Positions 28,689 through 47,234 of a DNA stretch of 64,000 bases are shown here, one piece after another. The DNA comes from Candidatus Cloacimonadota bacterium (GTDB lineage Bacteria; Cloacimonadota; Cloacimonadia; JGIOTU-2). Position 1 is the stretch's first letter. Each line of letters opens with the position of its first letter. A model generated the notes under the pieces. That model made no database searches. It had not been told where the DNA came from and saw nothing but the letters and a program-made list of their open reading frames with translations. Both the position numbers and the translations under genes were made by a program. Location: the NCBI GenBank assembly GCA_016932035.1, contig JAFGDR010000009.1, positions 34,845 to 98,844 of the forward strand, in the 5' to 3' direction.

Positions 28689-28849
28689 AGAAGAGTAAGA
28701 GTGTGGATTAACAAAAAATTGTTGACAAAAAAGTATAGAAAATTTTGGGATTTACTTGTTAGTGTATTCATCCTCAAAGCCATAATCTAATTAAATCAAA
28801 TATTTTAATGATAGAAAAGAAACTAGAATTACATATTGGAGGACAAAGC

Positions 28850-29839
28850 ATGAAAAAAATCATTATTTTGGTTGTTTTAATTTGTGTTTCATTCTTTATG
28901 TTTTCGTGCAGTAAATCAACAGACACAGATACAACAGCTCCAACAGTTACCATAACTTTTCCGGCAAATAACCAGCAATTCACACAAGGGGCAGTTATAA
29001 CAATAACTGTAACTGCAACAGATGCAAGAGGTATTAAAGAAGTAAAATTCTATATTGATGGCACACAAGTTGGAACAGACGATACGACTCCGTATGAGTA
29101 TGAATGGGATACCGGTGCACTTAAAGATACCACGCATTCTATCTATGCAAAAGCGTGGGATAATAATGACAATATCGGTACATCAAGTACGATCAATGTT
29201 ACACTAACAAACACAGTCACAGACTATGATGGAAATGTTTATCATATCGTAAAGATCGGCGATCAAGAATGGTTATTGGAAAACTTGAAAGTAACACATT
29301 TTAAAAACGGGGATGCAATACCTCAAGAAACTGATAATGCAACATGGGCTGATTTAACCACTGCAGCATACTGCATGTATGACAATTCTACTACATACGG
29401 ACAGGCATATGGTTATTTGTATAACTGGTATGCGGTTAGTGATACAAGGGGACTTGCACCTGAAGGATGGCATATCCCGTCAGATGAGGAGTGGAAAGAA
29501 CTTGAAATGGCTCTTGGTATGTCGCAGGCTGAAGCTGATGCAGTAGGTTGGAGGGGTACTGATCAGGGTGGTCAGTTGAAAGAAGCCGGGACAACACACT
29601 GGGCTAATCCAAATACTGCTGCTACAAACACTTCGGGCTTTACTGCTCTGGGTGGAGGACGACGCAGCGGATCAACCGGTTATTTTACATCAATCGGGAA
29701 TTATGCATTTTTCTGGACTTCTACTGAATATGATGCTGATAATATTTGGACTCGCTGGCTTGCCCATGATACTTCACAAATTGATCGAACAGGTTATCCC
29801 TTGAAGGGTGGTTACACAGTCCGATGTGTAAGAGACTAA
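28850..29839 (+). CDS. FISUMP-domain protein with N-terminal signal peptide and Ig-like domain
   Basis: Start MKKIIILVV preceded by GGAGG (the ORF track start at 28808 is too early). 'YGYLYNWYAV', 'GWHIPSDEEWKELE', 'GYTVRCVRD' match the TIGR02145-type Fibrobacter paralogous domain. Confidence 0.75.
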   Translation: MKKIIILVVLICVSFFMFSCSKSTDTDTTAPTVTITFPANNQQFTQGAVITITVTATDARGIKEVKFYIDGTQVGTDDTTPYEYEWDTGALKDTTHSIYAKAWDNNDNIGTSSTINVTLTNTVTDYDGNVYHIVKIGDQEWLLENLKVTHFKNGDAIPQETDNATWADLTTAAYCMYDNSTTYGQAYGYLYNWYAVSDTRGLAPEGWHIPSDEEWKELEMALGMSQAEADAVGWRGTDQGGQLKEAGTTHWANPNTAATNTSGFTALGGGRRSGSTGYFTSIGNYAFFWTSTEYDADNIWTRWLAHDTSQIDRTGYPLKGGYTVRCVRD

Positions 29840-29855: not shown

Positions 29856-29890
29856 GGAGTGTTATGAATATTCATAGCACTCCTTTTTTT
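29856..29890 (+). terminator. strong intrinsic terminator (28-nt near-perfect palindrome plus T7)
   Basis: ggagtgttatgaatattcatagcactcc followed by ttttttt, 17 nt after the FISUMP gene stop. Confidence 0.8.
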
Positions 29891-29989: not shown

Positions 29990-30955
29990 ATGATGAAAAA
30001 AATACTACTCATATTTGTTTCTATTTTTGCTATATTGTCAATCTCCTGTAATAACACCGGTCCTGACCCTGAACCAATCACGGTTACAATAACTTCTCCG
30101 GAAGATTCTCAGGAGTTCCTTAAAGGGGATATTGTTACGATATCAGCCACAGTTAATGAAAAATCTGATCTATATTTTGTTGCTTTCTTCATTGATGATG
30201 TCGATATGGGGTGTGATTTTGAACCACCGTATGAGTATCAATGGGACACTGAAATAGCTAAGAATTCTGATCATAGTATCTATGTAGAAGCATGGGATAT
30301 GAAAGATAATACCGGAACTTCAAATGTTATACATGTCACTCTTATTACATCAATTACGGATATTGATGGGAATCAATACAATATCATTAAGGTTGGTTCC
30401 CAATATTGGTTGAAAGAGAACCTGATAGTTACCCATTATCGAAATGGAGATAGCATTCCAATTGTTACTGTTGATGAGGACTGGATCGTTCAGTCTGATG
30501 GAGCTTGGTGTAGTTACAATAATTCTTCGATGTTTGATAAAGTATATGGACATTTGTATAATTGGTTTACTGTGAAGGATGATAGGGGATTAGCTCCGGA
30601 GGGATGGCATGTTGCAACACTGAATGAATGGCAGGTATTAATTGAATTTCTTGGAGGTGATGGCGTGGCTGGAGGGAAATTGAAGGAAGTTGGAAATACT
30701 CATTGGAATATCCCCAATACAGGAGCAACAAATGAAAGCGGATTCACAGCGTTACCCGGTGGATATCGAAGTACTTATTATGATGGTGAATTTTTTCATT
30801 TGGGATATAATGCACATTTCTGGATGTTACAAGAATCAAGCGACATGTATGCGGAATATATTCATCTTCATTATGATTTTCCTAATGTTTTTATAAGTAA
30901 TGAAGACAAAAGGGATGGTTTTTCCGTTCGTTGTATAAAGAACCAAGAAAATTAA
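29990..30955 (+). CDS. FISUMP-domain protein (second full-length paralog)
   Basis: 321 aa; signal peptide MMKKILLIFVSIFAILSISC; 'YGHLYNWFTV', 'GWHVATLNEWQVL', 'GFSVRCIKN'. Confidence 0.75.
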   Translation: MMKKILLIFVSIFAILSISCNNTGPDPEPITVTITSPEDSQEFLKGDIVTISATVNEKSDLYFVAFFIDDVDMGCDFEPPYEYQWDTEIAKNSDHSIYVEAWDMKDNTGTSNVIHVTLITSITDIDGNQYNIIKVGSQYWLKENLIVTHYRNGDSIPIVTVDEDWIVQSDGAWCSYNNSSMFDKVYGHLYNWFTVKDDRGLAPEGWHVATLNEWQVLIEFLGGDGVAGGKLKEVGNTHWNIPNTGATNESGFTALPGGYRSTYYDGEFFHLGYNAHFWMLQESSDMYAEYIHLHYDFPNVFISNEDKRDGFSVRCIKNQEN

Positions 30956-31014: not shown

Positions 31015-34000
31015 ATGCGTAGACTTATTTTTTTGTTGTCGCTTATTATTATCTTCATATTCAATCCATTGTTCGGGAAGAAACAAATCCTAGATGTTGA
31101 ACCCTATCCATACAAATGGCAATTCCAGCAGGATACAAAACCGATTAAAACTGAAATAATTGGAAATCCCTTTGATTATGCTGGAAAACGGATTGGAATT
31201 GACGTTCGCAATTTCGAGCTTCCAAAAGCATATGAAAATTCATATCGACTTGCATGCAGATTTCCACTCATTGATTATATCTCGAATCAACCGCTGTATA
31301 TGAAACAATGGGCTGAAGAAGTAAGTGACACCTTTTTGATTATTCAAAAGCAGAGGCGAATTGAAGTAACCGGATATGCTTTGGAGTTGTTAAGAGATAC
31401 TGAAACATTTCCTTCCATGAAAATCTCGCATGATGTTGATTTATTCAAAGATTTTAAAGATATGTTGTTCTTTCGCTCCTTTACTTCGGAATATCGTATG
31501 GCAGTCTTAAATCTTGTTGAAAACTTTCTTATTGCAAAATCAATGATAACAAAAGCAAAGGAAGATCTGACTAACGAAGATCTGAAGTTTTTTAATGATA
31601 ATCCCGGTTATTTTCTCATTCCTGATGGAGAACATATGCCTTCCTTAACCGGAGATAATTCAACTCAATTAGACTTCATTAAGCATGCAAGGAATGTTAA
31701 GTTCCAGTACATATTCTTTGCCGCAAAGATCATGTCAGAAGCAATTTATAGATATTGGGATACTGTTAAAAACATGGAGGTATCAGACATATATTCAAAA
31801 CCCGCAGCCTATGAAGAACCATTCATCTATGTGACAAATTCCCTAAGGATCGTAATCAGGGGTATCGGAAATGATGTCTATACAAAAGATGCAGATCTGC
31901 TCATTGACGTGGGTGGTAATGATGTTTATCAAAATAATGCAGGGGGATGCAGGTCGAGTTTTGAAGAAATCGCAGTGTGTATCGACCATACAGGAAATGA
32001 TTTATACCAAGCTGGAGAAGATCTCTATGTGCAGGGATTTGGATTTCTCGGATGTGGTTTTCTCGTAGATTTCCAGGGGAATGATATATATGAAGCAAAA
32101 CATTTTTCACAAGGAGTTGGAGTCTGTGGTATTGGTGTTTTGTGGGATGTGGAAGGTTTTGACAGTTATGATGCTCACGGAATTTGTCAGGGTGCTGGAA
32201 TAGTCGGGCTTGGCATGCTATTGGATGACGCAGGAGAAGACCTTTATGATTGTTCCACAATCGGACAAGGGAGTGCAACAACCCTAGGTTTGGGCATTCT
32301 CTCTGATCTTGAAGGAGATGATCGTTACTATCTCGCAATTGACGAGTCGAAGGATAAACTCGGCTATCTTCCCGGCTATGGTCAGGGTGGAGCACTTTCA
32401 TTTAGAAATTACCCATGGAAAAAAAAACTTACTGCATATGGTGGTGCTGGATTACTATTAGATGCATCAGGTAATGATCGATATTGGACAAAGGGCTGGA
32501 GTGATCAGGGTGGGAGTTACATCATGTCTTTAGGCGCACTTGTTGATATTCAAGGAAATGATCACTATACGGCTAATACTGGCCAGGGGAGTGGCATTCA
32601 TATAACTAACGCGATCCTTATCGATAAAGACGGTCATGATATCTACGAAGGAGGATTCCGAACTGGAGGATCGGGAGGAGACAGATCCCCGGGATTTTTG
32701 CTGGACTATGCAGGAAACGATGTATATAGATCTCACACTTCTTCTTATGGTACAGGAGTAAAACCTTCAAGTTACTCACTTTTTATTGATTATCTCGGTG
32801 ATGATACGTATATCTGCGATAATCCAAAGGACAAAATAACATTCAACAATTGGCAGAGTTTTGGTGGTGTATGGCCAGAATCGGATCCCAATAATTGGCC
32901 TTATGCATTATGCTTTGATCTTGAAGGTATTGATGACTATCAGGTTCTCTACCACGAAAACAATTGTGAAAGATCGAGTTTTGGACATGGAATTTTTATC
33001 GATATGGAATGGAGTGGGGGAGATGTTATCGGTCATGTAGATAACACTTTGAAAGAGCAGCTTTTACCGCAAATTCCTGATGATGTCATTCAATCGGAAT
33101 ACAATGAAAATATTCGAGGATTATTATCTCCCAGTACATTTATGCGATTTCAAACGATAGGTAAACTTATTAGTGACTCTATCAAGGTCATACCGTTACT
33201 TGCTGAGATCTTAAACATATCAGAAAATAGAAGTTTAAACAGAGATATACTCGAAATTATTCATTATAAGTTAGTTGAAAATGAAATTAATGAAGCTATA
33301 GAACAATCTTTGATAAATTGCTTGAGTTCTCCAGATGATGAGGTGCGATATATTATTGCTGATGATATTGGAATGTGGAATATTGCATGCGGTGAAGAAG
33401 CTCTGATTCAGTGTGCACAAACTGATACTTCTGCAGATGTTAGGTTTGCTGCTGTACAATCCCTAATGCGTTTTAAATCAAAAAAAGCTCTTCCTTTCGT
33501 ACGCAGATTGAGTGAGAAAGATCATTCAGCTGATGTCAGGAGAATAGCTGTTAAATATCTTGGCATCATAGATGATGGCATCGATCCTTTTCCGTTACTG
33601 AAATATGCCCTTGAACACGATTCTTCTCCAGCTGTCCGGGTGGAAGCTGCAAGATCACTGGGAAAACGAAATGATGAACGAGCTGTTCCACTCCTCGAAA
33701 AAGCAGCTCAGTCCTTTGATGCCTATCTACAACGTGCAGCGGGGAAAAGCCTTGCTGATATGGGGTATATTGAAGGAATAGAGATACTCATTGAATCTCT
33801 TTCATTTCCCTCAATCGATGCATTTGAAAACTACAATTATAATATTCCTAATTTTATTGCAATGTACACGGGAAATGATTTTTCTGAACAAGTCCGTTAT
33901 GATCTGCATACATGGAAGGATTGGTTCGACAAGAATAAGGATTCTATCAATATTGAAGTGAATATTGACATTATGGAAAAGTATAATCTGCTGATTGACT

Positions 34001-34362
34001 CACTATCCTCATTTGAACAGGTGAGTAAAATTCAGCCACTTGATAATTTCGTGAATAAATATCCTCATTTAATGAAAGCAAAAAAGGATCTGGCTTCGAT
34101 TCTCAATAATGTAGCATGGGATTTGGTTACTGCTCCTACAGGTACAAGGAGGTATGATCTTGAGAAAGGACTCGAGTATGCGCTGCGTTGCGTCGAGTTA
34201 GATCCTCAGCTGAATTATATTGATACTCTAGCTGAAGCATATTTACAAAGCGGATTATATCAACAAGCTCTTGACATATGTAATGACGTTCTTAAAGACC
34301 ACCCTGAGAATTCAATGTTTATTGACCGAAAATCAGTCTGTGAATCATTTCTCAATAAATAA
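31015..34362 (+). CDS. large secreted mosaic protein: ~13 tandem 'D-x-x-G-[ND]-D-x-Y' repeats (beta-solenoid-like), PBS-lyase-type HEAT repeats, C-terminal TPR-like region
   Basis: 1115 aa; signal peptide. Repeats across 31861-32960: DVGGNDVY, DHTGNDLY, DFQGNDIY, DVEGFDSY, DDAGEDLY, DLEGDDRY, DASGNDRY, DIQGNDHY, DKDGHDIY, DYAGNDVY, DYLGDDTY, DLEGIDDY. HEAT repeats 'DVRFAAVQSL', 'DVRRIAVKYLG', 'PAVRVEAARSLG' (~33330-33720). Confidence 0.6.
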   Translation: MRRLIFLLSLIIIFIFNPLFGKKQILDVEPYPYKWQFQQDTKPIKTEIIGNPFDYAGKRIGIDVRNFELPKAYENSYRLACRFPLIDYISNQPLYMKQWAEEVSDTFLIIQKQRRIEVTGYALELLRDTETFPSMKISHDVDLFKDFKDMLFFRSFTSEYRMAVLNLVENFLIAKSMITKAKEDLTNEDLKFFNDNPGYFLIPDGEHMPSLTGDNSTQLDFIKHARNVKFQYIFFAAKIMSEAIYRYWDTVKNMEVSDIYSKPAAYEEPFIYVTNSLRIVIRGIGNDVYTKDADLLIDVGGNDVYQNNAGGCRSSFEEIAVCIDHTGNDLYQAGEDLYVQGFGFLGCGFLVDFQGNDIYEAKHFSQGVGVCGIGVLWDVEGFDSYDAHGICQGAGIVGLGMLLDDAGEDLYDCSTIGQGSATTLGLGILSDLEGDDRYYLAIDESKDKLGYLPGYGQGGALSFRNYPWKKKLTAYGGAGLLLDASGNDRYWTKGWSDQGGSYIMSLGALVDIQGNDHYTANTGQGSGIHITNAILIDKDGHDIYEGGFRTGGSGGDRSPGFLLDYAGNDVYRSHTSSYGTGVKPSSYSLFIDYLGDDTYICDNPKDKITFNNWQSFGGVWPESDPNNWPYALCFDLEGIDDYQVLYHENNCERSSFGHGIFIDMEWSGGDVIGHVDNTLKEQLLPQIPDDVIQSEYNENIRGLLSPSTFMRFQTIGKLISDSIKVIPLLAEILNISENRSLNRDILEIIHYKLVENEINEAIEQSLINCLSSPDDEVRYIIADDIGMWNIACGEEALIQCAQTDTSADVRFAAVQSLMRFKSKKALPFVRRLSEKDHSADVRRIAVKYLGIIDDGIDPFPLLKYALEHDSSPAVRVEAARSLGKRNDERAVPLLEKAAQSFDAYLQRAAGKSLADMGYIEGIEILIESLSFPSIDAFENYNYNIPNFIAMYTGNDFSEQVRYDLHTWKDWFDKNKDSINIEVNIDIMEKYNLLIDSLSSFEQVSKIQPLDNFVNKYPHLMKAKKDLASILNNVAWDLVTAPTGTRRYDLEKGLEYALRCVELDPQLNYIDTLAEAYLQSGLYQQALDICNDVLKDHPENSMFIDRKSVCESFLNK

Positions 34363-34427: not shown

Positions 34428-36098
34428 ATGCGCATGGAAAAATTTGATATTATTGATTATAAAAAAGTAAATGAAGTACTACATCAATTAAATGAATTGG
34501 TTGAGAAACAAAGCAAGCATATAAGGGAACTCATACATATTGGAGAATCTCTTTCCGCAAAAAATAGTCTCATTAACATCTTCTCTATAATTCTTAAAGA
34601 GGCAATGGATTATGCTAACACAGATGGAGGAACGATTTATGTAATTTCTAATGATAAACAATATCTAGATTTTAAGTTACTCTATAATAAATCTCTTCAA
34701 CAGCGAATGGGAGATATTAATTCTCCAGTAACCTGGCCAAGTGTTCCCTTATATAATTGTGATGGTTCCCCAAATATGAATCATATGGTTTCGTATGTAT
34801 TCCATACAAAGGAGAGTAAAGAATTTGATGATGTGTACAAACAAGACATTTTTGATAATACTGGTACAAAGAAATATGATATGCGAAATAATTATCACTC
34901 AAAATCTATGGCAGCAATACCATTGACAAATCATGAAGACGAGGTATTAGGAGTGATTCAGCTTATTAATGCACAAGATGATGAAGGAAAGATTATCTCT
35001 TTCAACGATAATCATTTATTAATGCTCAATTCCCTTGCATCACAGGCAGCTATCTCTCTTTCAAATAGCAGGTTAATAGAACATCTTGAAGAATTACTTC
35101 TGCAATTTATCAAATCAATTGCTTCTGCAATCGATAAGAAGTCAAAATATACTGCAGGACATGTCAAACGGGTGGCAACCCTTACAGAAGATATTGCACA
35201 TGTGATAAACAATCAGGACAGAGGTCCGTTTCAGGATGTTTTTTTTAGTGCCGATCAGCTTAAGGAAATTTCAATGGCAGGTTGGATGCATGATGTCGGA
35301 AAAATAGTTACGCCTGAATGTATTATGGATAAATCCACAAAACTCGAGAAGATTGTTGATAGAATTGAAATCGTGAATATTCGCTGTGAACTAATAAAAC
35401 AGGTCGTTTTTAAAGATTTAAATAAAATGCGCGCTCAAGGAGTTCTTACTGGTAAAAAAGAACGCGAATTAAATATGATCATTAGTCAAATTGAAAAGGA
35501 TTTCCAGCTAATAGATGAATTGAATTATGGTGCGGAAATTTTCTCTGATGAATACACAAAGGAGATCGAGAGAATCGAATCATTTTCTTATACATCTGAT
35601 GGCATTGAATATAAGCTACTATCTGAAGACGAAGTAAAGAATCTCAAAATAAGTAGAGGTACCCTGACAGAAGAGGAATTTGCAGTTATGAAAGATCATG
35701 CACAGGTTACATGGGAAATGCTTTCACCTCTTCCATTACCAAAGAAGTATGAAAATGTACCCCTTTTTGCTGCATCTCACCATGAAAGACTTGATGGTGG
35801 AGGTTATCCAAACAGACTCCCAGAAAATAAAATACCCCTTCAAGCACGTATAATAGCTGTGGCAGATGTTTACGAAGCTCTTTTAAGTGAGCGTCCATAC
35901 AAAAAAGGAAAAAAACTAAGTGAAGCATTGACCATCATGGCACATATGGTTCTTGAAAATAAATTGGATTGGACCGTTTTAGAAATCCTCTTAGATTCGG
36001 AATTGTATCTAACATTTGCACAGAAAATAGCAAAACCTGACCAGATCGATGAAGTGTCCTTAAAAGATATAAAAAAGATATACCATAAATTAGACTGA
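34428..36098 (+). CDS. GAF domain-containing HD-GYP phosphodiesterase (c-di-GMP hydrolase)
   Basis: 'HDVGK' HD motif and 'HHERLDGGGYP' HD-GYP signature. Confidence 0.8.
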   Translation: MRMEKFDIIDYKKVNEVLHQLNELVEKQSKHIRELIHIGESLSAKNSLINIFSIILKEAMDYANTDGGTIYVISNDKQYLDFKLLYNKSLQQRMGDINSPVTWPSVPLYNCDGSPNMNHMVSYVFHTKESKEFDDVYKQDIFDNTGTKKYDMRNNYHSKSMAAIPLTNHEDEVLGVIQLINAQDDEGKIISFNDNHLLMLNSLASQAAISLSNSRLIEHLEELLLQFIKSIASAIDKKSKYTAGHVKRVATLTEDIAHVINNQDRGPFQDVFFSADQLKEISMAGWMHDVGKIVTPECIMDKSTKLEKIVDRIEIVNIRCELIKQVVFKDLNKMRAQGVLTGKKERELNMIISQIEKDFQLIDELNYGAEIFSDEYTKEIERIESFSYTSDGIEYKLLSEDEVKNLKISRGTLTEEEFAVMKDHAQVTWEMLSPLPLPKKYENVPLFAASHHERLDGGGYPNRLPENKIPLQARIIAVADVYEALLSERPYKKGKKLSEALTIMAHMVLENKLDWTVLEILLDSELYLTFAQKIAKPDQIDEVSLKDIKKIYHKLD

Positions 36099-36139: not shown

Positions 36140-37084
36140 ATGAAAGAACTTCAAATATCAATTTTATATGTAGAAGATGAACATATCATTCTTCAATCAG
36201 TAAAAGATATGCTTGAGGGTAAAGTCAGGAATCTTTATCTAGCGATGAGTGCCGAGGAAGCCCTGGATCTCTTTAAAAAACATAAACCAGATGTGGTGAT
36301 CACAGATATTAAAATGCCCGGTATGGATGGGCTTGAATTACTACGCGAGATCAAGAAAATTAAACTCGACACAAAACTTGTCGTGTTAACAGCGTTCGGA
36401 AAAAGGAATTATCTCATGGATGCAATTTCCATAGGCGTAGATAAGTTTATTCTCAAGCCCGTTGAAGAGGATTTCTATTATAAAGAACTCCAGGACCTTT
36501 CCAGATCGATCAAGCTTGAAAAACAACTCAGGCTTGAAGAGGAGCGAAGGAGAAAGGCACAGAAAGAGCTAGAAGAAGCTAATAAACGATTAAGTAAATT
36601 AGCACGAACAGATCCTTTGACTGGACTATCAAATAGAAGAGATATATATGAGAAAATAGAGTATGAGATAAAACGTTTTGAGAGAAATAATATTCCCTTT
36701 TCCATAGTGATCGGAGATATTGATGATTTTAAGGATGTGAATGATAATCTTGGCCATGATGCTGGTGATTTTGTTCTCTTCTCCATAGCTCGGCATATAC
36801 GTTCAATGCTCAGAAAACAGGATGTTGTTGGACGATGGGGCGGAGAAGAATTTATACTTATGCTGCCAAACACAAACCTGGAAGGTGCCAAGATCATAAC
36901 TGAAAGAGTTCGGAAGTCGATTAAAGAAAAAGTTATTCAATATAAAGAGAATGATGTTTCAATAACAATTACCTTCGGAATTTCAGTGTTTGATGAAATG
37001 GAGCCAATCAACGATTGCATAAAAAAATCAGATACTGCATTATATAAAGGGAAAAAGGAAGGGAAGAACTGTGTGACAGTTTGA
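36140..37084 (+). CDS. response-regulator receiver fused to GGDEF diguanylate cyclase (active-site GGEEF)
   Basis: REC 'ILYVEDE...VVITDIKMPGMDG'; GGDEF 'RWGGEEFILML'; AAGGAG RBS. Confidence 0.85.
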   Translation: MKELQISILYVEDEHIILQSVKDMLEGKVRNLYLAMSAEEALDLFKKHKPDVVITDIKMPGMDGLELLREIKKIKLDTKLVVLTAFGKRNYLMDAISIGVDKFILKPVEEDFYYKELQDLSRSIKLEKQLRLEEERRRKAQKELEEANKRLSKLARTDPLTGLSNRRDIYEKIEYEIKRFERNNIPFSIVIGDIDDFKDVNDNLGHDAGDFVLFSIARHIRSMLRKQDVVGRWGGEEFILMLPNTNLEGAKIITERVRKSIKEKVIQYKENDVSITITFGISVFDEMEPINDCIKKSDTALYKGKKEGKNCVTV

Positions 37085-37218
37085 TAAATTATTATAATAA
37101 ATATATATTACTATTAAAATCAGCATATTATAAAAAAACTTGACGCTCCTCCAGACCAGCTTACCTTTTTGTTCAAATTTTTTTGAATAAAAAAATAATT
37201 CATGAAAGCAAGAAGAAA

Positions 37219-38205
37219 ATGACCAAAAAAATACTCCCATTTCTCGTTTTTACTATCATACTGTTTGCAGGTTGTGCTGACTTTCTTGAACCTATTATTT
37301 ATCCCGGGGAATTAATTATTAAAGCAATCATTCCTACAAATGGCTTTGCAAGGGATGTGTTTGTATCAGAAGAATTCATATTTATTGCAGAAGATCAAGC
37401 AGGTTTCTCGATCTATGATAAGGCAACAGATTCACTCCTTGTGCAGTATTATGGGAATATCGAGAATGCCAGGCTTATTCAGGCAATCGATGATATTAAT
37501 CAGGTTTTTGTATACGACAGATACGGTAGCCCAGCTGCTATCATGGTTTATGATTATACCGACCCGAAAAATCCAGTTGAACTACCACCTGTAACTGGCC
37601 AGACGGCAAGCATAGAAGATCTCAAATGTGTGCTACGGGCAGATAATAGCGTCGATGTTCTTTGGACACATGCAAATAGCTATCAATATGGAAATTACAA
37701 TAACATTTGGTTAGGATCCTATGCATATGATTTTCCCAATGCTATTGAAGGTTTTGATATACGTGATACATTATTATTTGTAAGTGGTGAACAGAGAGGG
37801 TTGTATATCACCAACCGAAATAATGGCACGATCATCAGTGAAGTGAATACACCCGGAACTGCTGTAGATGTAAAAGTATATGAGAACTATGCCTATGTCG
37901 CAGATAAAGAATACGGAATATCTGTAATCGATATCTCCGATATTACACAACCTGAACTTGTTTTCAATTATGACACTTCAGGTTATGCACAAAGATTAGA
38001 TGTCGATGGAGATTTTCTTATTCTTGCTTCTGGAGGTGGAGGTGTGTATCTGTTTGATATTTCAAACAGAGAACATCCTGAATTTTCCGATCGATGGGAT
38101 GATTCAGATATTGGATATACGTATGATGTGGAATTTTATGATGGAGAAGTTTTTGTCTCAACCCGTGAGGGTGTGTATCGTATGTCAATTGTATTAAAAA
38201 ATTAA
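37219..38205 (+). CDS. LVIVD-repeat beta-propeller lipoprotein
   Basis: Start MTKKILPFLVFTIILFAGC (lipobox; the track start at 37183 is a TTG). Repeats 'YAYVADKEYGISVIDISDITQPEL' match LVIVD. Ends 15 nt before the first C25 peptidase gene. Confidence 0.65.
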   Translation: MTKKILPFLVFTIILFAGCADFLEPIIYPGELIIKAIIPTNGFARDVFVSEEFIFIAEDQAGFSIYDKATDSLLVQYYGNIENARLIQAIDDINQVFVYDRYGSPAAIMVYDYTDPKNPVELPPVTGQTASIEDLKCVLRADNSVDVLWTHANSYQYGNYNNIWLGSYAYDFPNAIEGFDIRDTLLFVSGEQRGLYITNRNNGTIISEVNTPGTAVDVKVYENYAYVADKEYGISVIDISDITQPELVFNYDTSGYAQRLDVDGDFLILASGGGGVYLFDISNREHPEFSDRWDDSDIGYTYDVEFYDGEVFVSTREGVYRMSIVLKN

Positions 38206-38220
38206 TAATTAGAGGATATA

Positions 38221-41200
38221 ATGAAAAGATTCCTTTTAGTAATTTTGTTTAGTCTTACTATTCTCTCTCTTTCTTACGCTGGATCATTTGAAACTGTTGC
38301 TCTATCACAGGATGAAAATGTAATGAAGTGTCAATTCTCAGATTTATCAACCTCGGAGTTACAGTTTGAACTACCGGAATTTAAGCAATACTTGCATTAT
38401 GAAAAAGATGCTGACTATCTTCAAATCTCGATCCCTTCAGAAGGTTCACTTGTTCTAGAAGGATATCCAGATCTCCCTGTAATAAGCAGACTGATCGCCA
38501 TTCCTCCCCAGGGCAATGTAAATTTTGAGATTCGTAATATCTATGAAGAGGTGATTTCCAATGTAGAAATTTATCCTTATCAGGGAGAAAATAGAACCGT
38601 TGAAAGTCTCCTGAAAAATAAGCAAGTATACAACGGAACCGAACCATATCCTTTGGAGATTATTACTTTATCAGAACCACAGATACTTCGAGATCTCAGG
38701 TTGGTAAGAGTTACTATACAGCCATTTCAATATTTTCCAGCAACCAAGGAACTGCGCATCATAAAAAGCGCTGATGTTGAAGTTACGACTACAGGAAATG
38801 GTGGAACTAATGCTAAGACTTCTCAAAGAAAGATTTCACGATTCTTTGAACCGATATATAAGTCAATGGTTCTGAACTACGAACAGGTATTACCTGAAGT
38901 TGAATACCAGGAACCATGCTATCTTTTTATTTATCCGAATGATACGACTGTTCAAGCATATATGAACTATATTACTGACTGGAAGCATCAAAAGGGATTT
39001 CGTGTCGAAACAACCGACCTCGCTCACACTGGTACGAGCTCTTCTCAAATAAAAACCTTTATTCAAAATGCCTATAATACTTGGGCTTATCCTCCAGAGT
39101 TTATATGTCTTGTTGGTGATGCAGACGGTTCATATAATATTCCTACAAGTTATTATTCAAGCGGTGAGGGAGATCAATATTATACTCTTCTCGAGGGTAA
39201 CGATATACTAGCAGATGTTATAATCGGAAGACTTTCTTTTAACTCTCTCCTGGAGTTACAAACAATCATTGCTAAAATTCTAAATTATGAAAAGACTCCT
39301 TATATGGCAAGCACAGACTGGTATACAAGGGCTCTTCTCGTTGGTGATCCTTCAACATCAGGTCCTTCATGTGTTTCTACATGCAAATTTGTAAAAGAAG
39401 TAATGCAAAATTATTCAAACGAGTTTACTTATGATGAAGTGTATTCTAATCCCTTTGTTTCAGGTATTGCTAATTCGATTAATAATGGAGTAAGTTACTT
39501 TCATTATCGGGGATATTATGGCATGAGTCAATGGGATAATACTGATATTTCAAACCTCTCAAACGGTTTTCTTTTGCCATTTGCTGTCTTTCCTACCTGT
39601 GGAACAGGAGATTTTGATGGCACAACCGGTCGTTCTGAATATTTTTTGAAAGTTGGTTCACCAAGTACGCCGAAAGGTGCTATTGCGGCAATCGGTACGT
39701 CAACCTTAAGCACTCATACTTGTTTTAATAATACAGTATCAGCTGGTGTTTTTAATGGAGTTTTCAGAGACCATATTTTCAATCCTGGTGGGGCTTTAGT
39801 TCGTTCAAAACTTAGTTTGTATAATAGTTATCCAACCAATCCAAATAACTGGGTAAACTGCTTCTCATACTGGAATAATCTTATGGGAGACCCAGGAATG
39901 GAACTTTGGACAACCGTACCGATTCAAATGGTGGTAACACATCCATCTTCCATTCCAATTGGAACAAATAATATCGAGGTAGTGGTTAAAAATTCATTTG
40001 GTTTTCCGTTATCGAATGCATGGGTAACAATCCTGCAGGAAAATGACACAATTTTTGAAAGCGGTTATACTGATTCATATGGTAAAATTGTACTTCCAAT
40101 TAGTACTACCAATACCGATGATGTTACCATTACTGTAACAAAACATGACCATATACCTTATATCTCTGATTTCAGCATCGGACAAGAAGATAATTTTGCA
40201 AGCATCTCAGATATTGAAATCGATGATGATAATAGCGGCTCATCATCAGGAAACAGCGATCATCTCTTGAATCCTGGTGAAGAAGTTGAATTGGTCATTA
40301 GCTTGAAAAATCACGGAAACTACTCACTTCATAATGTCACTGCTACTCTTGAAACTGATGCTGCTGGTGTTACTATTACAGATAATACAGAAGAATATGG
40401 AACCATCAATGTCGGACAAGTAGTTGCCAGCACTGATGATTTTGATATTTCTATAGCTGAGGATGTTTTAGGGAATACAGAGGTGACATTTGAGCTTCTG
40501 ATAACTGACAGTGCTTCTAACCAATGGACAGATTGGTTTACACTGCCGATATTAGGTGCGAACCTTGATTTTTATGATTATACGATAATTGATGGCAATG
40601 ACGGCATCCTCGATCCCGGTGAAACTGCTCAATTGATCGTGACATTGAAAAATTCGGGATCTGTTAGCGCATATTCTATTGACGGGTATCTGCATAGCGA
40701 TGATGACAATATTGTTCTTAATGATAGTCTTGGATTCTGGGGTGTCGTATACTCTAATGATACTGCAACAAATAATAGTAATACTTTCGAAGTATTTGCG
40801 AACACGCAGGTAATACCGGGAAGTCAATATAATCTACCGCTTCATCTTACCAATACAGATGGCTATGATGAAGTAGTCCAGGTATCTCTCGAGGTAGGAG
40901 TTGTCGATGTTGGCGATCCGCTTGGACCTGATAAGTACGGCTATTACTGTTACGATGATGGGGATACGGATTACAGTATAGCTCCATTATATTTTTGGAT
41001 AGAAATCGATCCGGATCTTGGGGGAAATGGCACCGCGTTAAACTTGTATGATTCCGGTGATGATGGAGATATTGCTACAATAGATATTCCTTTCACCTTT
41101 ACCTTTTATGGTCGATTCTATCATACAATAACTATATGCACAAATGGCTGGATTGCGCCAGGCAGCAGCGAAGAGTTTGCTTTCATGAACAGACCCGTTC

Positions 41201-43662
41201 CTGAATCACTCGGACCGTCACCCATGATTGCTGCATTTTGGGATGACCTGAGAACAACAAGCAGCAGTGATGTTTGCTATTACTATGATTCTAATTCGCA
41301 TTATTTCGTTGTAGAATGGTCACATATGAACAATGATTATGATAACTCAGAAGAAACATTTGAAGTTATTTTATACGATCCTGCCTATTATCCAACTCCG
41401 ACTGGTGACTCAGAAATACTTGTACAGTATAAAATATTTAATAATGTCAATGCAGGTTACTATTCTGGTGGTTATATCAATCATGGAGAGTATTCAACGA
41501 TAGGTTTGGAAGATCATAGTGGACTGGTTGGTCTGCAATATAGCTTCTGCAATATCTATCCCCCTGCTGCAAGAACACTCACAAATGAATCAGCAATTCT
41601 CTTTACAACTCGTGGATCTGAAATTCTCGATCCGCCAGTTGCAAATGTAACTCCTTTACAGTTTGAATTTGACCTTGATCAAGGGCAGGTAGGACATGAT
41701 GAACTCTCAATCTCGAATCTCGGAGAATCTAATCTGATCTATTCTATCGAAAAAGATTATAATACTGAGCGCGATGCAGGTGGACCGGATAGTTATGGTT
41801 ATATGTGGTCAGATTCCAACGAACCCGGCGGACCTGTTTATGAATGGATTGATATCAGTGGAATTGGCACAGAAGTTTCTTTTAGTCATAATGATGTTGC
41901 ATCAGGTCCCTTTGATATTGGATTCGATTTTGACTTCTATGGTGAAACTTATGATGAGTTTATTTTAAGTCCCAATGGATGGATCGGATTTGGTAATGAT
42001 TGGGATGATTATCATAACTATTCAATTCCAAGAAATGATGCTCCAAAACCTGCGATTTTTGGTTTCTGGGATGATCTCGATCCTCTGCAGGGTGGTGATG
42101 TATACTATTATTCCGATGGTACAGAAAACCTTATCATCTGGTTTGATCATGTCATACATTTTCCAGGTAATACAAACGGAACATATGATTTTCAGATCAT
42201 AATCTCAAGCGACAATACGATAAAATACCAGTATAGAACTCTCAGCGGGACAATCACAAGCTGTACTGTCGGTATTCAAAACGGAACAGGCTCGGTAGGA
42301 TTAGAAGTCGTCTACAATGGTAACTACCTTCAAAATAATCTTGCAGTAGAGTTCTACAGAGTAATCGATTGGCTCAGCGTGTCTCCTTCGAGTGGAATCG
42401 TTTTTGAAGACGATACACAAATAGTAGATATCGATGTCGAAACTGATGAACTCGAATATGGTTATGAGTATTATTGTGACCTTTACTTATCAACAAATGA
42501 TCCTAATCTCACCCAAACAGTTATTCCAGTACATCTTATAGTTGGTGATATTGAACAGGGAACCGTTCAGGGAACCGTAAATTTGTTTGGAGGATCTTCT
42601 TCTCCAGATGATGTGACTATTACAATAGGGAGTACATCATTACATCCAGATCCTTCAGGATGGTATAGCACAGTAATTCCTATTGGAAATTACACATTAT
42701 CTGCCACATGTCCTGGATACGACAGTTATATTCTTGATATAAACGTTCAAGCTGATCAGATAATAATTGTGAATCCTGAGCTGGAATACATTGAAGCACC
42801 AGAGAATGTATGGGTTGAATTGTCGGAAAATTATATTGCGACAATTATATGGAATGATGTATCACAATACGATAAAGCAAGACTGTTCCAGTGCTACACG
42901 CTTGCACGGCAGATTGATGATGGCAGCTGGATTATCCTTGAGGAAGGTTTGCATGACACTATTTTTGTCGATAATCTTTATGGGCAATCTGATGGTGATT
43001 ATAAATACGGAGTGAAAGCAGTGTACGAAAACACTCAAAGCTCACTCGTGGAGTCAGAGACATTACCAATCTACCGTTTTGTCGATGTCAGGTTTGAATT
43101 TACCCTTTCTAATGGGCAAACCCCTTCTGGAATTCATTTTAACCTAACAGGTCTGGATACGATCTACACCCAGGTTTTTAATGATTCAACTGGTGTTAAT
43201 GGACTCATATCGTATCAGGATGTATTCAAAGCAGATTATCATGTGACCATTGAAAAGACTGGATTTGAAACCATCGATGAAGTCATCACGATAGATGATG
43301 AGCATACAAACTTTCAATATGCACTTCAATATATAACTGATATTGGTGATACTCCAACTCCTCTTGTAAGTAAATTAGAGCAAAATCACCCCAATCCTTT
43401 CCATCGCATCGGTTACGGACATTCTGGAACTGAAATAAACTATCATATCCATAAATCCGCGCATGTACAGGTTGAGATATATAATCTCAAAGGTGAACAT
43501 GTTGCAACGTTAGTTAGTGGCAATATGACACCGGGAATTTATTCAACCACCTGGAATGGATGTGATGAGCAAAACAAGACCGTTGGATCCGGTATATATT
43601 TCTATAGACTTATGATCGATAATATCCCAGTAGAAAGCAGAAAGTGTATTCTTATTAAATAA
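38221..43662 (+). CDS. gingipain-like cysteine peptidase (family C25) with T9SS C-terminal sorting domain
   Basis: 1813 aa; signal peptide; C25 propeptide-like N-domain 'GYPDLPVISRLIAIPPQG'; His-Gly...Cys dyad context 'HYRGYYG...FPTCGTGDF'; C-terminal ~80 aa 'NHPNPF...IYFYRLMIDNIPVESRKCILIK' is a Por_Secre_tail CTD. Confidence 0.75.
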   Translation: MKRFLLVILFSLTILSLSYAGSFETVALSQDENVMKCQFSDLSTSELQFELPEFKQYLHYEKDADYLQISIPSEGSLVLEGYPDLPVISRLIAIPPQGNVNFEIRNIYEEVISNVEIYPYQGENRTVESLLKNKQVYNGTEPYPLEIITLSEPQILRDLRLVRVTIQPFQYFPATKELRIIKSADVEVTTTGNGGTNAKTSQRKISRFFEPIYKSMVLNYEQVLPEVEYQEPCYLFIYPNDTTVQAYMNYITDWKHQKGFRVETTDLAHTGTSSSQIKTFIQNAYNTWAYPPEFICLVGDADGSYNIPTSYYSSGEGDQYYTLLEGNDILADVIIGRLSFNSLLELQTIIAKILNYEKTPYMASTDWYTRALLVGDPSTSGPSCVSTCKFVKEVMQNYSNEFTYDEVYSNPFVSGIANSINNGVSYFHYRGYYGMSQWDNTDISNLSNGFLLPFAVFPTCGTGDFDGTTGRSEYFLKVGSPSTPKGAIAAIGTSTLSTHTCFNNTVSAGVFNGVFRDHIFNPGGALVRSKLSLYNSYPTNPNNWVNCFSYWNNLMGDPGMELWTTVPIQMVVTHPSSIPIGTNNIEVVVKNSFGFPLSNAWVTILQENDTIFESGYTDSYGKIVLPISTTNTDDVTITVTKHDHIPYISDFSIGQEDNFASISDIEIDDDNSGSSSGNSDHLLNPGEEVELVISLKNHGNYSLHNVTATLETDAAGVTITDNTEEYGTINVGQVVASTDDFDISIAEDVLGNTEVTFELLITDSASNQWTDWFTLPILGANLDFYDYTIIDGNDGILDPGETAQLIVTLKNSGSVSAYSIDGYLHSDDDNIVLNDSLGFWGVVYSNDTATNNSNTFEVFANTQVIPGSQYNLPLHLTNTDGYDEVVQVSLEVGVVDVGDPLGPDKYGYYCYDDGDTDYSIAPLYFWIEIDPDLGGNGTALNLYDSGDDGDIATIDIPFTFTFYGRFYHTITICTNGWIAPGSSEEFAFMNRPVPESLGPSPMIAAFWDDLRTTSSSDVCYYYDSNSHYFVVEWSHMNNDYDNSEETFEVILYDPAYYPTPTGDSEILVQYKIFNNVNAGYYSGGYINHGEYSTIGLEDHSGLVGLQYSFCNIYPPAARTLTNESAILFTTRGSEILDPPVANVTPLQFEFDLDQGQVGHDELSISNLGESNLIYSIEKDYNTERDAGGPDSYGYMWSDSNEPGGPVYEWIDISGIGTEVSFSHNDVASGPFDIGFDFDFYGETYDEFILSPNGWIGFGNDWDDYHNYSIPRNDAPKPAIFGFWDDLDPLQGGDVYYYSDGTENLIIWFDHVIHFPGNTNGTYDFQIIISSDNTIKYQYRTLSGTITSCTVGIQNGTGSVGLEVVYNGNYLQNNLAVEFYRVIDWLSVSPSSGIVFEDDTQIVDIDVETDELEYGYEYYCDLYLSTNDPNLTQTVIPVHLIVGDIEQGTVQGTVNLFGGSSSPDDVTITIGSTSLHPDPSGWYSTVIPIGNYTLSATCPGYDSYILDINVQADQIIIVNPELEYIEAPENVWVELSENYIATIIWNDVSQYDKARLFQCYTLARQIDDGSWIILEEGLHDTIFVDNLYGQSDGDYKYGVKAVYENTQSSLVESETLPIYRFVDVRFEFTLSNGQTPSGIHFNLTGLDTIYTQVFNDSTGVNGLISYQDVFKADYHVTIEKTGFETIDEVITIDDEHTNFQYALQYITDIGDTPTPLVSKLEQNHPNPFHRIGYGHSGTEINYHIHKSAHVQVEIYNLKGEHVATLVSGNMTPGIYSTTWNGCDEQNKTVGSGIYFYRLMIDNIPVESRKCILIK

Positions 43663-43742: not shown

Positions 43743-46700
43743 ATGAAATTTTTGGAGTTTTTCATGAAGACGTTTTTCATATTAACTATTGTTCTATGTG
43801 CAGTGAATATTGCTTTTGCAGATACAATAGAAAAAATTTACTATTTTGATGATCCACATTTTATCTCTGTCGATGGTAGTTATCAGGTAGTTGGTTTTGA
43901 ATCAACTATTCAATCCGCACCGGCAGGATATCCATCTTTACCTTACCATGCGATTTCATTACTATTACCCCCTGGTCATGAAGCAGTGGACATTGAGGTT
44001 TTGCCTGAGGGCAAAGAAACTCTTGCGGGAACTTACTCTCTTTATCCAGCCCAGTATGTTCAACCATATTCAAAAGAAAAATCAGGGCAATTTCTCTTAA
44101 ATCAAGACATTTATAATCAAAGTGGATCATATCCTGATAATATAAGAGGACAGCTCTCAACTGAATATATGAATGGTTTCGGATTTGCTTTTTGTGCTAT
44201 TACACCGATCGAGTATGTTCCAAAAGAACAACAACTTTCATATTATCATACTATTACCGTGAGGATCACAACCCAGATACATTCAAATAAATCATCACTT
44301 GCCATACCATCTACAGTATGTGAATCGCATTTTGAAACGATTCAAAAATTGGCTCAAAATCCTGAGATGATCACGAAATATGAACGAGATCTTCGTGACG
44401 GAGAATATGAAGTTCTCTTGATAACTCCTGAAGCATTCATAAATGATTTCTCGGACTTGATCGATATGTATCTCACTCAAGGATTACGGACTGAAATTGT
44501 AACTACTCAGACGATAGCATCAACTATGACGGGTGTTGATCTTCAGGAAAAAATCAGGAATTATATTATACAGGAATATCAAACAAACGGAATCCGATAT
44601 GTCATTCTCGGCGGAGATGATGAACATATTCCACATCGGGGTTTTTATTGCGAAGTCCAATCATCATCGTTATATACTGATGATGATATCCCTGCTGATC
44701 TATACTATTCTGCACTTGATGGAACCTGGAATGATGACAATGATAATCTTTGGGGTGAAATAGGAGAGGATGATCTTCTTCCGGATGTGTCGGTTGGGAG
44801 AATGTCATTCAGCAATTCTGCTGAACTCGCAAACATATTGAATAAATCAATGAGTTATCAGGAAAATCCTGTACTTGGGGAATTGACAAGCCCGATCTTT
44901 GCTGGTGAAGATCTGTATAACAGCCCTCAAACCTGGGGTGGTGATTATCTTGATCTTCTGATTGGTTTACGTGAAGATAATGGATATACAACCAATGGAA
45001 TCCCAGCAACTCAAAATATTGAAAAATTATATGACAGAGATCTTGGGTACTGGAGTGCATCCACACTGATAAGTAAAATAAATGAAGGAAAATCCTATGT
45101 TCACCATTCGGGTCATGCGAACCAGACATATTGCATGAGAATGGATGACAGCGATATAACAAATGCTAATTTTTCAAATGTAAATGGTACAACTCACAAT
45201 TATACACATATTTATACTCACGGTTGTCTTTCAGGTGCTTTTGATTCAAATGACTGTATTGCAGAAGATATAGTGAATTTAGAGAATTTTGCAGCATCAT
45301 TCATTGGAAATTCCAGGTATGGCTGGTTCAACGAGGGACAGACAGAAGGTCCATCCGAACATCTTCATCGTGAGTATGTTAATGCATTATATACACTAAG
45401 GAAAGACAGAATCGGAGAAGCGCACCTGTATTCGAAGATCAATACTGCTCCATGGGTGAATGCACCGGGACAGCATGAAGAAGGCGCTTTGCGATGGTGT
45501 TTCTATTGCTGTAATGTGATTGGGGATCCTGTCTTGTCCATCTGGACAGATGAACCGATCTCCATACAGGTTACTTATCCAGATAGCATTTTTATCGGTC
45601 AAACGCAAATGCAGGTTAGTATTTCAAGTTTTAGTAATGTTGAAGGTCTTGTCTGTACGATCATCAAGGACGGTATGTATCATGCTTCAGGAACAGTTGA
45701 CGCAACAGGCCTGGCAACAATCGATATTGATCCCATCTTTACAGATGTTGGGACAGCCCAATTGATCATTACCGGGTATAATTGTCTGAAAGCGAGTTAT
45801 GATATAATCATAACCCCCAGCTCGGGAGCATATGTCATCATTGATAGTGTTGCCACAAAAGACTCGAATAACAACATGCCTGAGTATGCAGAAGAAGTGA
45901 GTTTTGATTTTGTTTTGAAGAATGTCGGAACTCAGGATGCAACCAATGTAACCGCAACGATCAGTTCTGACGATGAATATATTTCCTGCTCATATTCTGC
46001 TGCCAATTTTGGTACAATTACAGCAGGTGGTATTGCTTCACAAGAAGATGTTCTACCGATCATAATTGATGAGTATATTCCGGATCAGCATGTCGCTTTA
46101 TTATCTATGAATATTTCAGCAGATGATAAGCAGTACTGGGCAACACAGTTCTCAATCATTCTTAATGCACCGGTTTTGGAAATTGGACAATGTCAAATAG
46201 ACGACAGCGCAGGCGATAATGATGGTGTGCTCGATCCTGGAGAAACAGTATTACTGACAATACCAACTCTCAACTCAGGCAATGCTACATCTCCTTCAGC
46301 CTCTTCTACTCTTAATTGCACGAACAACTTGATCACGATACAAAACTCATCTGTAAATCTCGGTGCAATTGCATCTGGAGATGCTGCTAATTCAGTTTTT
46401 ACCGTTAGTGCAAGCGATCAAATAGAAGAAGGTTCAGCTGTTACATTCGATTTTTCAGTCGATGCAGGTTTGTACGATATAGATGAAGCGATCAGCATGA
46501 CGATAGGATTAATTATCGAAGATTTTGAAACCGGAGATTTCAGCATGTTTGACTGGTATTTTAATGGAGATGCTGACTGGACAATATCAAATACGGATGT
46601 ATATGAAGGTTTCTTTTCAGCAAAATCCGGTGCAATCGAACATAGTTCTGAGACATCTCTCAAGATTGATGTCGAAGTATTTACAGATGGTGAAATCAGT

Positions 46701-47234
46701 TTCTGGAAAAAAGTATCCTCAGAAAACAATTATGATTATCTGCAATTTTACATTGATGGTTCGCTGCAGGATGAATGGAGTGGTGAGTCATCCTGGTCTG
46801 AAGAATCATATAGCGTATTAGCCGGCGTGCATACTTTTGAATGGCGCTATGACAAGGATGTCTATGTAACTGGAGGAAGCGACTGTGCATGGATCGATTA
46901 TATAATCTTCCCGCCACTTGGTGCACCAACAGCAAATGACGATCCATCAATAATAGCTCAAAATTATCTATCTGAAAACTTCCCGAATCCTTTTAATAAT
47001 TCAACCCATATACATTTTGCGATAAAGCAATCATCTCATGTTACGATTGAAATCTATAATATTTTAGGACAAAAAGTTCGAACGATAGCTGATGATGAAT
47101 TTTCTGCTGGAAATCATGAAGTACAATGGGATGGACGGGATGCTTTTGAACGAAAAGCTGCAAATGGAGTATATTTTTATAAAATGAATACAGATACATT
47201 CAATCAAACAAGAAAAATGATATTGATGAAATAA
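43743..47234 (+). CDS. gingipain-like C25 cysteine peptidase with T9SS CTD and a jelly-roll-like domain shared with the M14 protein at 52602
   Basis: 1163 aa; 'GYPSLPYHAISLLLPPG' propeptide; 'HHSGHAN...YTHGCLSGAFD' His/Cys context; CTD 'ENFPNPFN...GVYFYKMNTDTFNQTRKMILMK'. Confidence 0.75.
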   Translation: MKFLEFFMKTFFILTIVLCAVNIAFADTIEKIYYFDDPHFISVDGSYQVVGFESTIQSAPAGYPSLPYHAISLLLPPGHEAVDIEVLPEGKETLAGTYSLYPAQYVQPYSKEKSGQFLLNQDIYNQSGSYPDNIRGQLSTEYMNGFGFAFCAITPIEYVPKEQQLSYYHTITVRITTQIHSNKSSLAIPSTVCESHFETIQKLAQNPEMITKYERDLRDGEYEVLLITPEAFINDFSDLIDMYLTQGLRTEIVTTQTIASTMTGVDLQEKIRNYIIQEYQTNGIRYVILGGDDEHIPHRGFYCEVQSSSLYTDDDIPADLYYSALDGTWNDDNDNLWGEIGEDDLLPDVSVGRMSFSNSAELANILNKSMSYQENPVLGELTSPIFAGEDLYNSPQTWGGDYLDLLIGLREDNGYTTNGIPATQNIEKLYDRDLGYWSASTLISKINEGKSYVHHSGHANQTYCMRMDDSDITNANFSNVNGTTHNYTHIYTHGCLSGAFDSNDCIAEDIVNLENFAASFIGNSRYGWFNEGQTEGPSEHLHREYVNALYTLRKDRIGEAHLYSKINTAPWVNAPGQHEEGALRWCFYCCNVIGDPVLSIWTDEPISIQVTYPDSIFIGQTQMQVSISSFSNVEGLVCTIIKDGMYHASGTVDATGLATIDIDPIFTDVGTAQLIITGYNCLKASYDIIITPSSGAYVIIDSVATKDSNNNMPEYAEEVSFDFVLKNVGTQDATNVTATISSDDEYISCSYSAANFGTITAGGIASQEDVLPIIIDEYIPDQHVALLSMNISADDKQYWATQFSIILNAPVLEIGQCQIDDSAGDNDGVLDPGETVLLTIPTLNSGNATSPSASSTLNCTNNLITIQNSSVNLGAIASGDAANSVFTVSASDQIEEGSAVTFDFSVDAGLYDIDEAISMTIGLIIEDFETGDFSMFDWYFNGDADWTISNTDVYEGFFSAKSGAIEHSSETSLKIDVEVFTDGEISFWKKVSSENNYDYLQFYIDGSLQDEWSGESSWSEESYSVLAGVHTFEWRYDKDVYVTGGSDCAWIDYIIFPPLGAPTANDDPSIIAQNYLSENFPNPFNNSTHIHFAIKQSSHVTIEIYNILGQKVRTIADDEFSAGNHEVQWDGRDAFERKAANGVYFYKMNTDTFNQTRKMILMK

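Follow-up and report, generated by a model that had tools for sequence, protein, structure and literature searches.

The gene at 31015-34362 (+) in a 64,000-nucleotide stretch of a Candidatus Cloacimonadota genome (the window) encodes an exported protein of 1115 amino acids (aa), built around a beta-solenoid that is predicted with high confidence and whose repeat defines a large superfamily. The open reading frame (ORF) is genuine: its product is identical to NCBI MBN2016755.1 from a Cloacimonadota metagenome-assembled genome (MAG), annotated as a 'HEAT repeat domain-containing protein'. The explanation that we favor as a whole, at roughly even confidence, is that of an exported, rigid, three-part protein carrying a row of Ca2+ ions and a groove for a polymer, with a peptide or protein as substrate.

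The repeat array is predicted to form a right-handed beta-helix

A pattern search returned 12 exact D-x-x-G-x-D-x-Y motifs at aa 298-642, where 0.04 would be expected from the protein's own composition, and the six-frame translation of the window contains the motif just three times outside the array. The 12 corners (first Asp at aa 298 to 635) span 31906..32940 (+) and are spaced 26-28 aa apart, apart from two wider gaps of 52 and 43 aa, which accommodate conserved insert loops. With one degenerate unit at either end the total comes to 13-14, confirming the array of about 13 DxxG(N/D)DxY units described in a first-pass annotation of the window. No tandem repeats were found at the DNA level, which argues that the units are ancient and diverged. 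Pooled from 743 units of 63 homologues, the consensus reads G/A-h-L-h-D-x-x-G-(N 48%/D 34%)-D-x-Y(95%), followed by a variable stretch, (Q/G)-G-x-G and the next unit. Turn positions +1 and +2 are variable (L/Y/K/D/H and G/A/S/E/K, respectively) and there is no Thr column. A 166-aa antisense ORF (31901-32401, -) lies inside the solenoid-coding DNA, and antisense ORFs occupy the equivalent place in 18 homologous loci. Most likely it is no gene but a side effect of Gly/Asp-rich codon usage, which leaves few stops on the opposite strand.

Using an alignment of 63 sequences, AlphaFold2 produced a full-length model with a mean predicted local distance difference test score (pLDDT) of 93.1 and a predicted template modelling score (pTM) of 0.89. 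The model places a beta region of 13-14 coils at about aa 270-668 (31822..33018, +) and helical repeats at aa 690-1115. In each repeat a 6-residue strand ends in the first Asp, a tight x-x-G-x-D corner follows, and a 3-4-residue strand carries the Tyr. We assign the repeat region to the beta-solenoids (beta-helices) with high confidence from this model, which bears out what had been proposed from periodicity. The modelled solenoid is a single-stranded right-handed beta-helix superimposable on its best structural neighbor, the RTX-like, Ca2+-bound right-handed beta-helix of region IV of MpAFP, an ice-binding adhesin of Marinomonas primoryensis (PDB 3P4G). Its top structural neighbors are non-enzymatic (antifreeze domain, adhesins). 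A Foldseek search of the PDB with the full-length model returned just HEAT/ARM matches and is uninformative for the solenoid.

The solenoid is flanked by helical parts on both sides. An N-terminal hydrophobic signal peptide (aa 1-21, 31015..31077, +), read from the sequence and modelled as a helix, consists of MRR plus 17 hydrophobic residues and has no lipobox Cys; in the model, helix aa 2-16 is followed by a disordered linker at aa 17-24 (pLDDT<50). A hydrophobic signal segment is found at the N-terminus of 59 of the 63 homologues, and 6 homologues have a lipobox. A conserved segment at aa 28-102 (31096..31320, +), evident from invariant alignment columns and from pLDDT, reads GNPxDYAG..., contains invariant P70, E74, Y77, R78, R82, P93, L94 and W99 and adopts mostly non-regular structure. 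It precedes an all-alpha N-domain at about aa 103-268 (31321..31818, +) with long helices at 95-127, 158-181 and 230-251, for which no solved structural relative was found. On the C-terminal side, an alpha-solenoid (aa 689-928, 33079..33798, +) comprises a helical linker and PBS-lyase-type HEAT repeats. A conserved non-repeat loop/helix (aa 929-1000, 33799..34014, +), defined by the alignment and the model, follows with the pattern SLSFPSIDAF.NY..N.PN ... RY...W..WF and invariant F931, D935 and W967. The protein ends in a TPR-like tail (aa 1002-1115, 34018..34359, +) that is helical in the model.

Because a pTM of 0.89 is high for a protein of this size, the model suggests that these parts form one rigid, packed body. 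The segment at aa 28-102, modelled at pLDDT 85-96 in the full-length protein, falls to 59-77 when the N-domain is modelled alone. This drop is consistent with parts packed together, and the segment probably packs on another domain. The same segment and the C-terminal conserved loop co-occur in relatives (Fisher p = 3e-15), a pattern due mainly to subfamily membership, which does not count as separate evidence that the two touch.

Family models cover only the HEAT part of the protein

We searched Pfam-A (2025) and NCBIfam (2026) with the whole protein and with its three parts separately, accepting E values up to 10. No model of either library matched the repeat region or the N-domain (aa 1-700). 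Scanned alone, the solenoid (aa 270-690) matched 0 Pfam families and the N-domain gave noise only. RHS/YD repeat models had no match on the repeat region, in agreement with the earlier statement that it is not a YD repeat. The PbH1 models PF13229 (Beta_helix) and PF05048 (NosD) had none in the protein; Beta_helix matched 2 of 53 distant relatives, at a place that may or may not overlap the solenoid. PDB sequences yielded no meaningful match to a single-sequence query or to a 6-sequence solenoid profile, and full-text literature searches returned nothing relevant on the repeat motif or DUF6288, nor on a Cloacimonadota HEAT plus beta-helix protein. No confident Pfam repeat match covers the array, so that the refuting condition set for the view that signal peptide, solenoid repeats and HEAT repeats form no described family did not arise.

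The earlier reading of PBS-lyase-like HEAT repeats followed by a TPR-like tail is supported. At aa 765-900, HEAT_2 scores 94.9 bits (cut-off 27.7), HEAT 42.8 (23.5) and HEAT_PBS 42.2 (20.9), so that the HEAT repeats (PF03130, PF13646) lie above the Pfam gathering threshold; TPR models match aa 1070-1100 below threshold. Both the database name and the HEAT_PBS matches might hint at a bilin lyase or NblB-like HEAT protein. Nothing in NCBIfam comes near any cut-off, and the equivalogs score 13-32 bits against cut-offs of 220-600; CpcE, CpcF and NblB reach 17-32 bits where 220-330 are required. Moreover, the protein is exported, belongs to a non-phototrophic candidate phylum and devotes only ~15% of its length to HEAT repeats. 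The failed equivalog thresholds effectively refute a bilin lyase or NblB, and we give this assignment next to no credence.

The protein belongs to a conserved orthologue group within a large superfamily

More than 1,200 proteins match aa 1-720, and the best 120 of these are almost all ~1,100 aa long with the same Pfam HEAT content. N-domain, solenoid, HEAT and TPR parts are kept end to end at 45-55% identity, including in MAGs of WOR-3, Calditrichota, Eisenbacteria and 'Planctomycetota'. Because the full architecture is kept across several phyla, the protein is a member of a conserved orthologue group and not the mosaic it had been taken for. Orthologues keep 10-12 motifs (12 in nearly all), and both insert loops (GQGGALSFRNYPW and WQSFGGVWPES) as well as the N-terminal set P70, E74, Y77, R78, R82 and W99 are invariant or nearly so. 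Even among long-form relatives that are 22-30% identical to each other, 42 of 46 retain the C-terminal HEAT part. At locus L006 (8001-11070) the orthologue is split into a 726-aa gene for N-domain and solenoid and an adjacent 287-aa HEAT gene; this split may be genuine rather than an assembly error, as identical 726-aa products come from 6 contigs.

The conserved number of coils bears on whether the protein might be a passive surface fiber, adhesin or ice-binding protein like MpAFP or autotransporter passengers. Coil number is variable in adhesins, but is fixed in nearly all orthologues here. The protein has an N-terminal Sec signal and a TPR C-terminus with no type I, type V or type IX secretion system (T1SS, T5SS or T9SS) export signal, and it looks compact and multi-domain (pTM 0.89) rather than like an extended stalk. 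MpAFP's outward Thr/Asx array is absent, turn positions 1-2 being variable, and on this ground ice binding was rejected. Overall, we regard a passive fiber or adhesin as improbable.

A solenoid-only profile searched against 1.84 billion 50%-identity representatives retrieved 3,843 clusters at E <= 1e-3, with 1,789 still matching at E <= 1e-30. Thus the repeat is not confined to this protein but characterizes a superfamily, numbering at least 3,843 clusters, in which other fusion partners occur. The commonest alternative architecture is PDZ plus helical region plus solenoid (24 of 53 scanned). Others are M14 carboxypeptidase plus solenoid, AAT/CBAH Ntn-hydrolase (a C45-type Ntn hydrolase) plus PDZ plus solenoid, LVIVD plus solenoid, N-terminal HEAT plus solenoid and short N-domain plus solenoid. 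Many members open with lipoprotein-like signals. Source databases name them 'hypothetical protein', 'PDZ domain-containing protein' or 'HEAT repeat domain-containing protein', and no Pfam model lay over the solenoid in nine superfamily proteins scanned individually. One representative (P0215, 3,581 aa) has 23 D..G.D.[YFWH] motifs in six separate matched stretches and probably carries several solenoid modules in one chain. At locus L044 (1976-11458) a distant 674-aa solenoid relative (P0268) lies within six consecutive genes whose products (686, 524, 426, 674, 435 and 318 aa) have no Pfam match; this run may represent either a cluster of paralogues or an uncharacterized operon.

Conserved residues outside the periodicity mark a candidate groove

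To the solenoid profile we aligned 146 diverse representatives. As expected, the positions that recur from coil to coil (D, G, D, Y, Q, G and L) are conserved. Conservation outside the repeat pattern is found at Tyr502 (0.86), His529 (0.92) and Asp556 (0.92), encoded within 32518..32682 (+). These residues are spaced by exactly 27 and 27 residues, approximately one coil, and fall on coils 8, 9 and 10. Within the orthologue group there are also an invariant Arg464 and nearly invariant Arg557 and Lys583, the last lying a further 27 residues along. Two conserved insert loops recognized in the alignment accompany this line, one in coil 7 (aa 439-476, 32329..32442, +; LPGYGQGGALSFRNYPW) with invariant G454, G456, Q457, G458, G459, A460, S462 and R464, and one in coil 12 (aa 604-629, 32824..32901, +; NNWQSFGGVWPESDPNNWP). 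Since conserved non-periodic residues recur one coil apart, we infer that Tyr502, His529 and Asp556 are a candidate ligand-binding or catalytic line or groove.

Prediction and homology indicate that the protein is exported by the Sec route to the periplasm or envelope as a rigid repeat protein of three packed parts: a helical N-domain preceded by the conserved extended segment, a parallel beta-helix of 13-14 coils of 26-28 residues, and a PBS-type HEAT plus TPR-like alpha-solenoid. In each modelled coil a strand ends in Asp, the chain turns through x-x-G-(N/D)-D, and x-Tyr opens the strand that follows. A row of about a dozen Ca2+ ions probably sits in the D-x-x-G-(N/D)-D corners where these stack; in that case the beta-helix would fold and stiffen only after export. 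Drawn by analogy with MpAFP region IV and RTX beta-rolls, this Ca2+ row with its export-dependent folding is a prediction that we consider evenly poised. A groove of Tyr502, His529 and Asp556, with Arg464, Arg557, Lys583 and the two insert loops, would grip an extended envelope polymer and possibly also cut or modify it, while the HEAT/TPR arm would hold a partner protein. The substrate would be a peptide or protein chain, a choice favored weakly because the solenoid is fused elsewhere to PDZ, M14 and C45-type Ntn-hydrolase domains and because the neighborhood here is protease-rich.

Several observations weigh against this proposal. The coil is 26-28 aa long rather than 18-21 and the corner is 2-3 residues shorter than that of MpAFP, and neither PF00353 (HemolysinCabind) nor a PDB sequence was matched even at E <= 10. 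For these reasons the Asp/Gly/Tyr pattern could be purely structural, like an Asn or aromatic ladder. Counted from the motif that comes next, Tyr502, His529 and Asp556 lie at -9, -8 and -8. This leaves a one-residue uncertainty in the register, and the three side chains could be buried or face differently; their stacking on one solvent-exposed face is deduced only from the 27-aa spacing. What paralogues are fused to need not be informative about this orthologue group. Finally, no neighbor is conserved across phyla among the 42 loci surveyed, where synteny is clade-specific only, and these phyla commonly encode T9SS cargo and peptidases, whose proximity may therefore be due to chance.

The main rival is a glycan-active right-handed beta-helix enzyme, that is, a hydrolase, lyase or epimerase acting on exopolysaccharide or peptidoglycan; the roles as c-di-GMP accessory, adhesin or ice binder, or bilin-lyase-like protein are minor rivals. 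The same residues would then form an active site, Tyr502/His529/Asp556 with Arg464, Arg557 and Lys583, in the groove, with Ca2+ as cofactor as in pectate lyases and the HEAT/TPR arm as a clamp for substrate or partner. However, the protein matches none of the CAZy-type beta-helix Pfam families (Beta_helix, NosD, Pectate_lyase), the top structural neighbors of the solenoid have no enzymatic function, the domains fused to the solenoid across the superfamily suggest peptides more than glycans, and a conserved polysaccharide locus was not found among the 42 loci. We therefore consider a glycan enzyme possible but unlikely. A broader conjecture would make the N-domain and solenoid the catalytic core of a large unnamed superfamily (>=3,800 50%-identity clusters) of exported Ca2+-dependent beta-helix enzymes. 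Their stacked Tyr-His-Asp line would process envelope or extracellular polymers, peptides or glycans, and the fusions to HEAT/TPR, PDZ, M14 and Ntn-hydrolase domains would serve as alternative modules for delivering the substrate or for follow-up steps. This we hold to be doubtful.

The c-di-GMP neighborhood is conserved only within a Cloacimonadota clade

Outside the protein itself, the gene is followed by genes for a GAF-HD-GYP protein (34428-36098, +) and a REC-GGDEF protein (36140-37084, +), with gaps of 66 bp and 42 bp. The trio is syntenic in 9 Cloacimonadota loci, namely that of the window and eight of close relatives with orthologues that are 76-80% identical. The first-pass placement of the gene immediately upstream of this pair thus holds in the window and its clade. 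It does not extend to the Cloacimonadota MAG L008 or, within a 6-10 kb flank, to any of the examined loci of WOR-3, Calditrichota, 'Planctomycetota', Eisenbacteria and other phyla. A check for co-occurrence of homologues with cyclic di-GMP (c-di-GMP) enzymes, which the annotation had proposed, likewise found it in one Cloacimonadota clade only, and the contexts of PDZ-type relatives were uninformative.

Synteny on one strand with short gaps would be compatible with a periplasmic or accessory partner of the c-di-GMP module that relays an envelope signal to c-di-GMP turnover. The protein, however, has no transmembrane or cytoplasmic signaling domain, and the HD-GYP and GGDEF proteins show just GAF/HD and REC/GGDEF domains, which are cytoplasmic types. 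Because no neighbor is universal and the syntenic orthologues are so similar, the linkage is best explained by descent, with no functional tie to the adjacent enzymes, and we judge a signaling partnership very improbable. In close relatives an extra gene for a 641-aa TPR plus Guanylate_cyc protein (class III cyclase) lies between the HD-GYP and REC-GGDEF genes (L001 15106-17031 and 6 other Cloacimonadota loci); it is missing in the window, where the pair adjoins.

Immediately downstream of the c-di-GMP pair, an exported-protease island occupies 37183-60641 (+). It comprises an LVIVD-repeat protein (37183-38205), three C25 gingipain-like peptidases (38221-43662, 43743-47234 and 56952-60641), a T9SS-tagged 997-aa protein of no assigned kind (47247-50240) and two M14 carboxypeptidases with T9SS C-terminal domains (50244-52520 and 52602-55724), all on the + strand, with an aminotransferase gene (55742-56935, +) interrupting the run. 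M14 and LVIVD domains are also fused directly to the solenoid elsewhere in the superfamily. One distant orthologue lies between M3, C10 and S9 peptidases. T9SS-tagged or C25-like proteins occur within 6-10 kb in ~11 of the 42 loci. Given the M14, LVIVD and PDZ fusions, this proximity is suggestive, but against the high background of such genes in these phyla we judged the co-occurrence with T9SS islands not distinguishable from chance. A T9SS C-terminal sorting domain (Por_Secre_tail / FlgD_ig / CHU_C) is present in six neighboring gene products and had no match in the protein itself, which was therefore rejected as T9SS cargo.

Just upstream of the gene, two tandem paralogous genes (28808-29839 and 29990-30955, +) encode Big_7 plus Fib_succ_major proteins, the latter being the Fibrobacter succinogenes major paralogous domain. 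A strong terminator-like hairpin (29856-29883) follows the first. Neither is present in the syntenic locus L001, in which RlmN is the next gene upstream. A DNA_alkylation-family gene (PF08713, HEAT-like fold) follows the orthologue in 10 loci (e.g. L003 11406-12185), most of them from WOR-3 MAGs, as a conserved neighbor specific to that clade.

Significance and comparison with known systems

The N-domain and solenoid, ~700 of 1115 residues, are invisible to Pfam and NCBIfam, although exported proteins and lipoproteins with this solenoid number in the thousands and come from many phyla, mostly uncultured ones. With a domain model, envelope proteins now listed as 'hypothetical' would be annotated in large numbers. 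If the Ca2+ row and the Tyr-His-Asp groove hold true, the small MpAFP/RTX class of Ca2+-bound beta-helices would extend to a 26-28-residue coil with a probable binding or catalytic function, and the protein would offer a handle on the envelope biology of the amino-acid-fermenting Cloacimonadota and their relatives. The analysis reveals no new signaling link to c-di-GMP and, as yet, no functional surprise.

The closest structural comparison is with MpAFP region IV, whose repeat of 19-21 aa has the consensus xGTGNDxuxuGGxuxGxux (PMC3492233). The coil here is longer, its corner is shorter, as noted, and a third, irregular side carries a Q-G-x-G ladder, whereas the Thr/Asx ice-binding array of MpAFP is missing. 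The repeat consensus differs and the 3p4g sequence gave no hidden Markov model match. MpAFP's helix is part of a giant T1SS adhesin, while the solenoid here sits between a helical N-domain and the HEAT/TPR part; Ca2+ is bound in MpAFP and predicted here by analogy.

Like RTX beta-rolls (PF00353, GGxGxDxUx), the array is rich in Gly and Asp, lies outside the cytoplasm and has the half-motif G-x-D-x-U (here G-N-D-x-Y) at the corner where one strand turns into the next. The earlier claim that the repeat is not an RTX nonapeptide is therefore correct in that the canonical nonapeptide is absent, but the G-(N/D)-D-x-Y corner corresponds to the RTX half-motif GxDxU. The period is 26-28 where RTX has 9 (18 to a coil), each coil has a single corner instead of two, and the RTX C-terminal T1SS signal is replaced by an N-terminal Sec signal and a TPR-like helix-pair C-terminus. 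Canonical RTX was rejected on the basis of this period, the unmatched PF00353 and the N-terminal signal in 59 of 63 homologues.

With PbH1/pectate-lyase-like beta-helices (AlgE4, tailspikes, passengers of autotransporter and two-partner secretion systems) the solenoid has in common its general fold class, a coil of ~22-28 aa and, possibly, conserved groove-located residues on consecutive coils. Compared with PBS-lyase HEAT proteins (PF03130/PF13646; CpcE/F, E. coli YibA, designed alphaRep), the protein is not a lyase equivalog, and its HEAT repeats form a C-terminal arm on a beta-helix protein that is exported. What is already known is thus the fold class, a right-handed or RTX-like beta-helix, and the HEAT and TPR repeats; new, and undescribed in the resources queried, are the 26-28-aa D-x-x-G-(N/D)-D-x-Y coil, its associated N-domain and the superfamily that they form.

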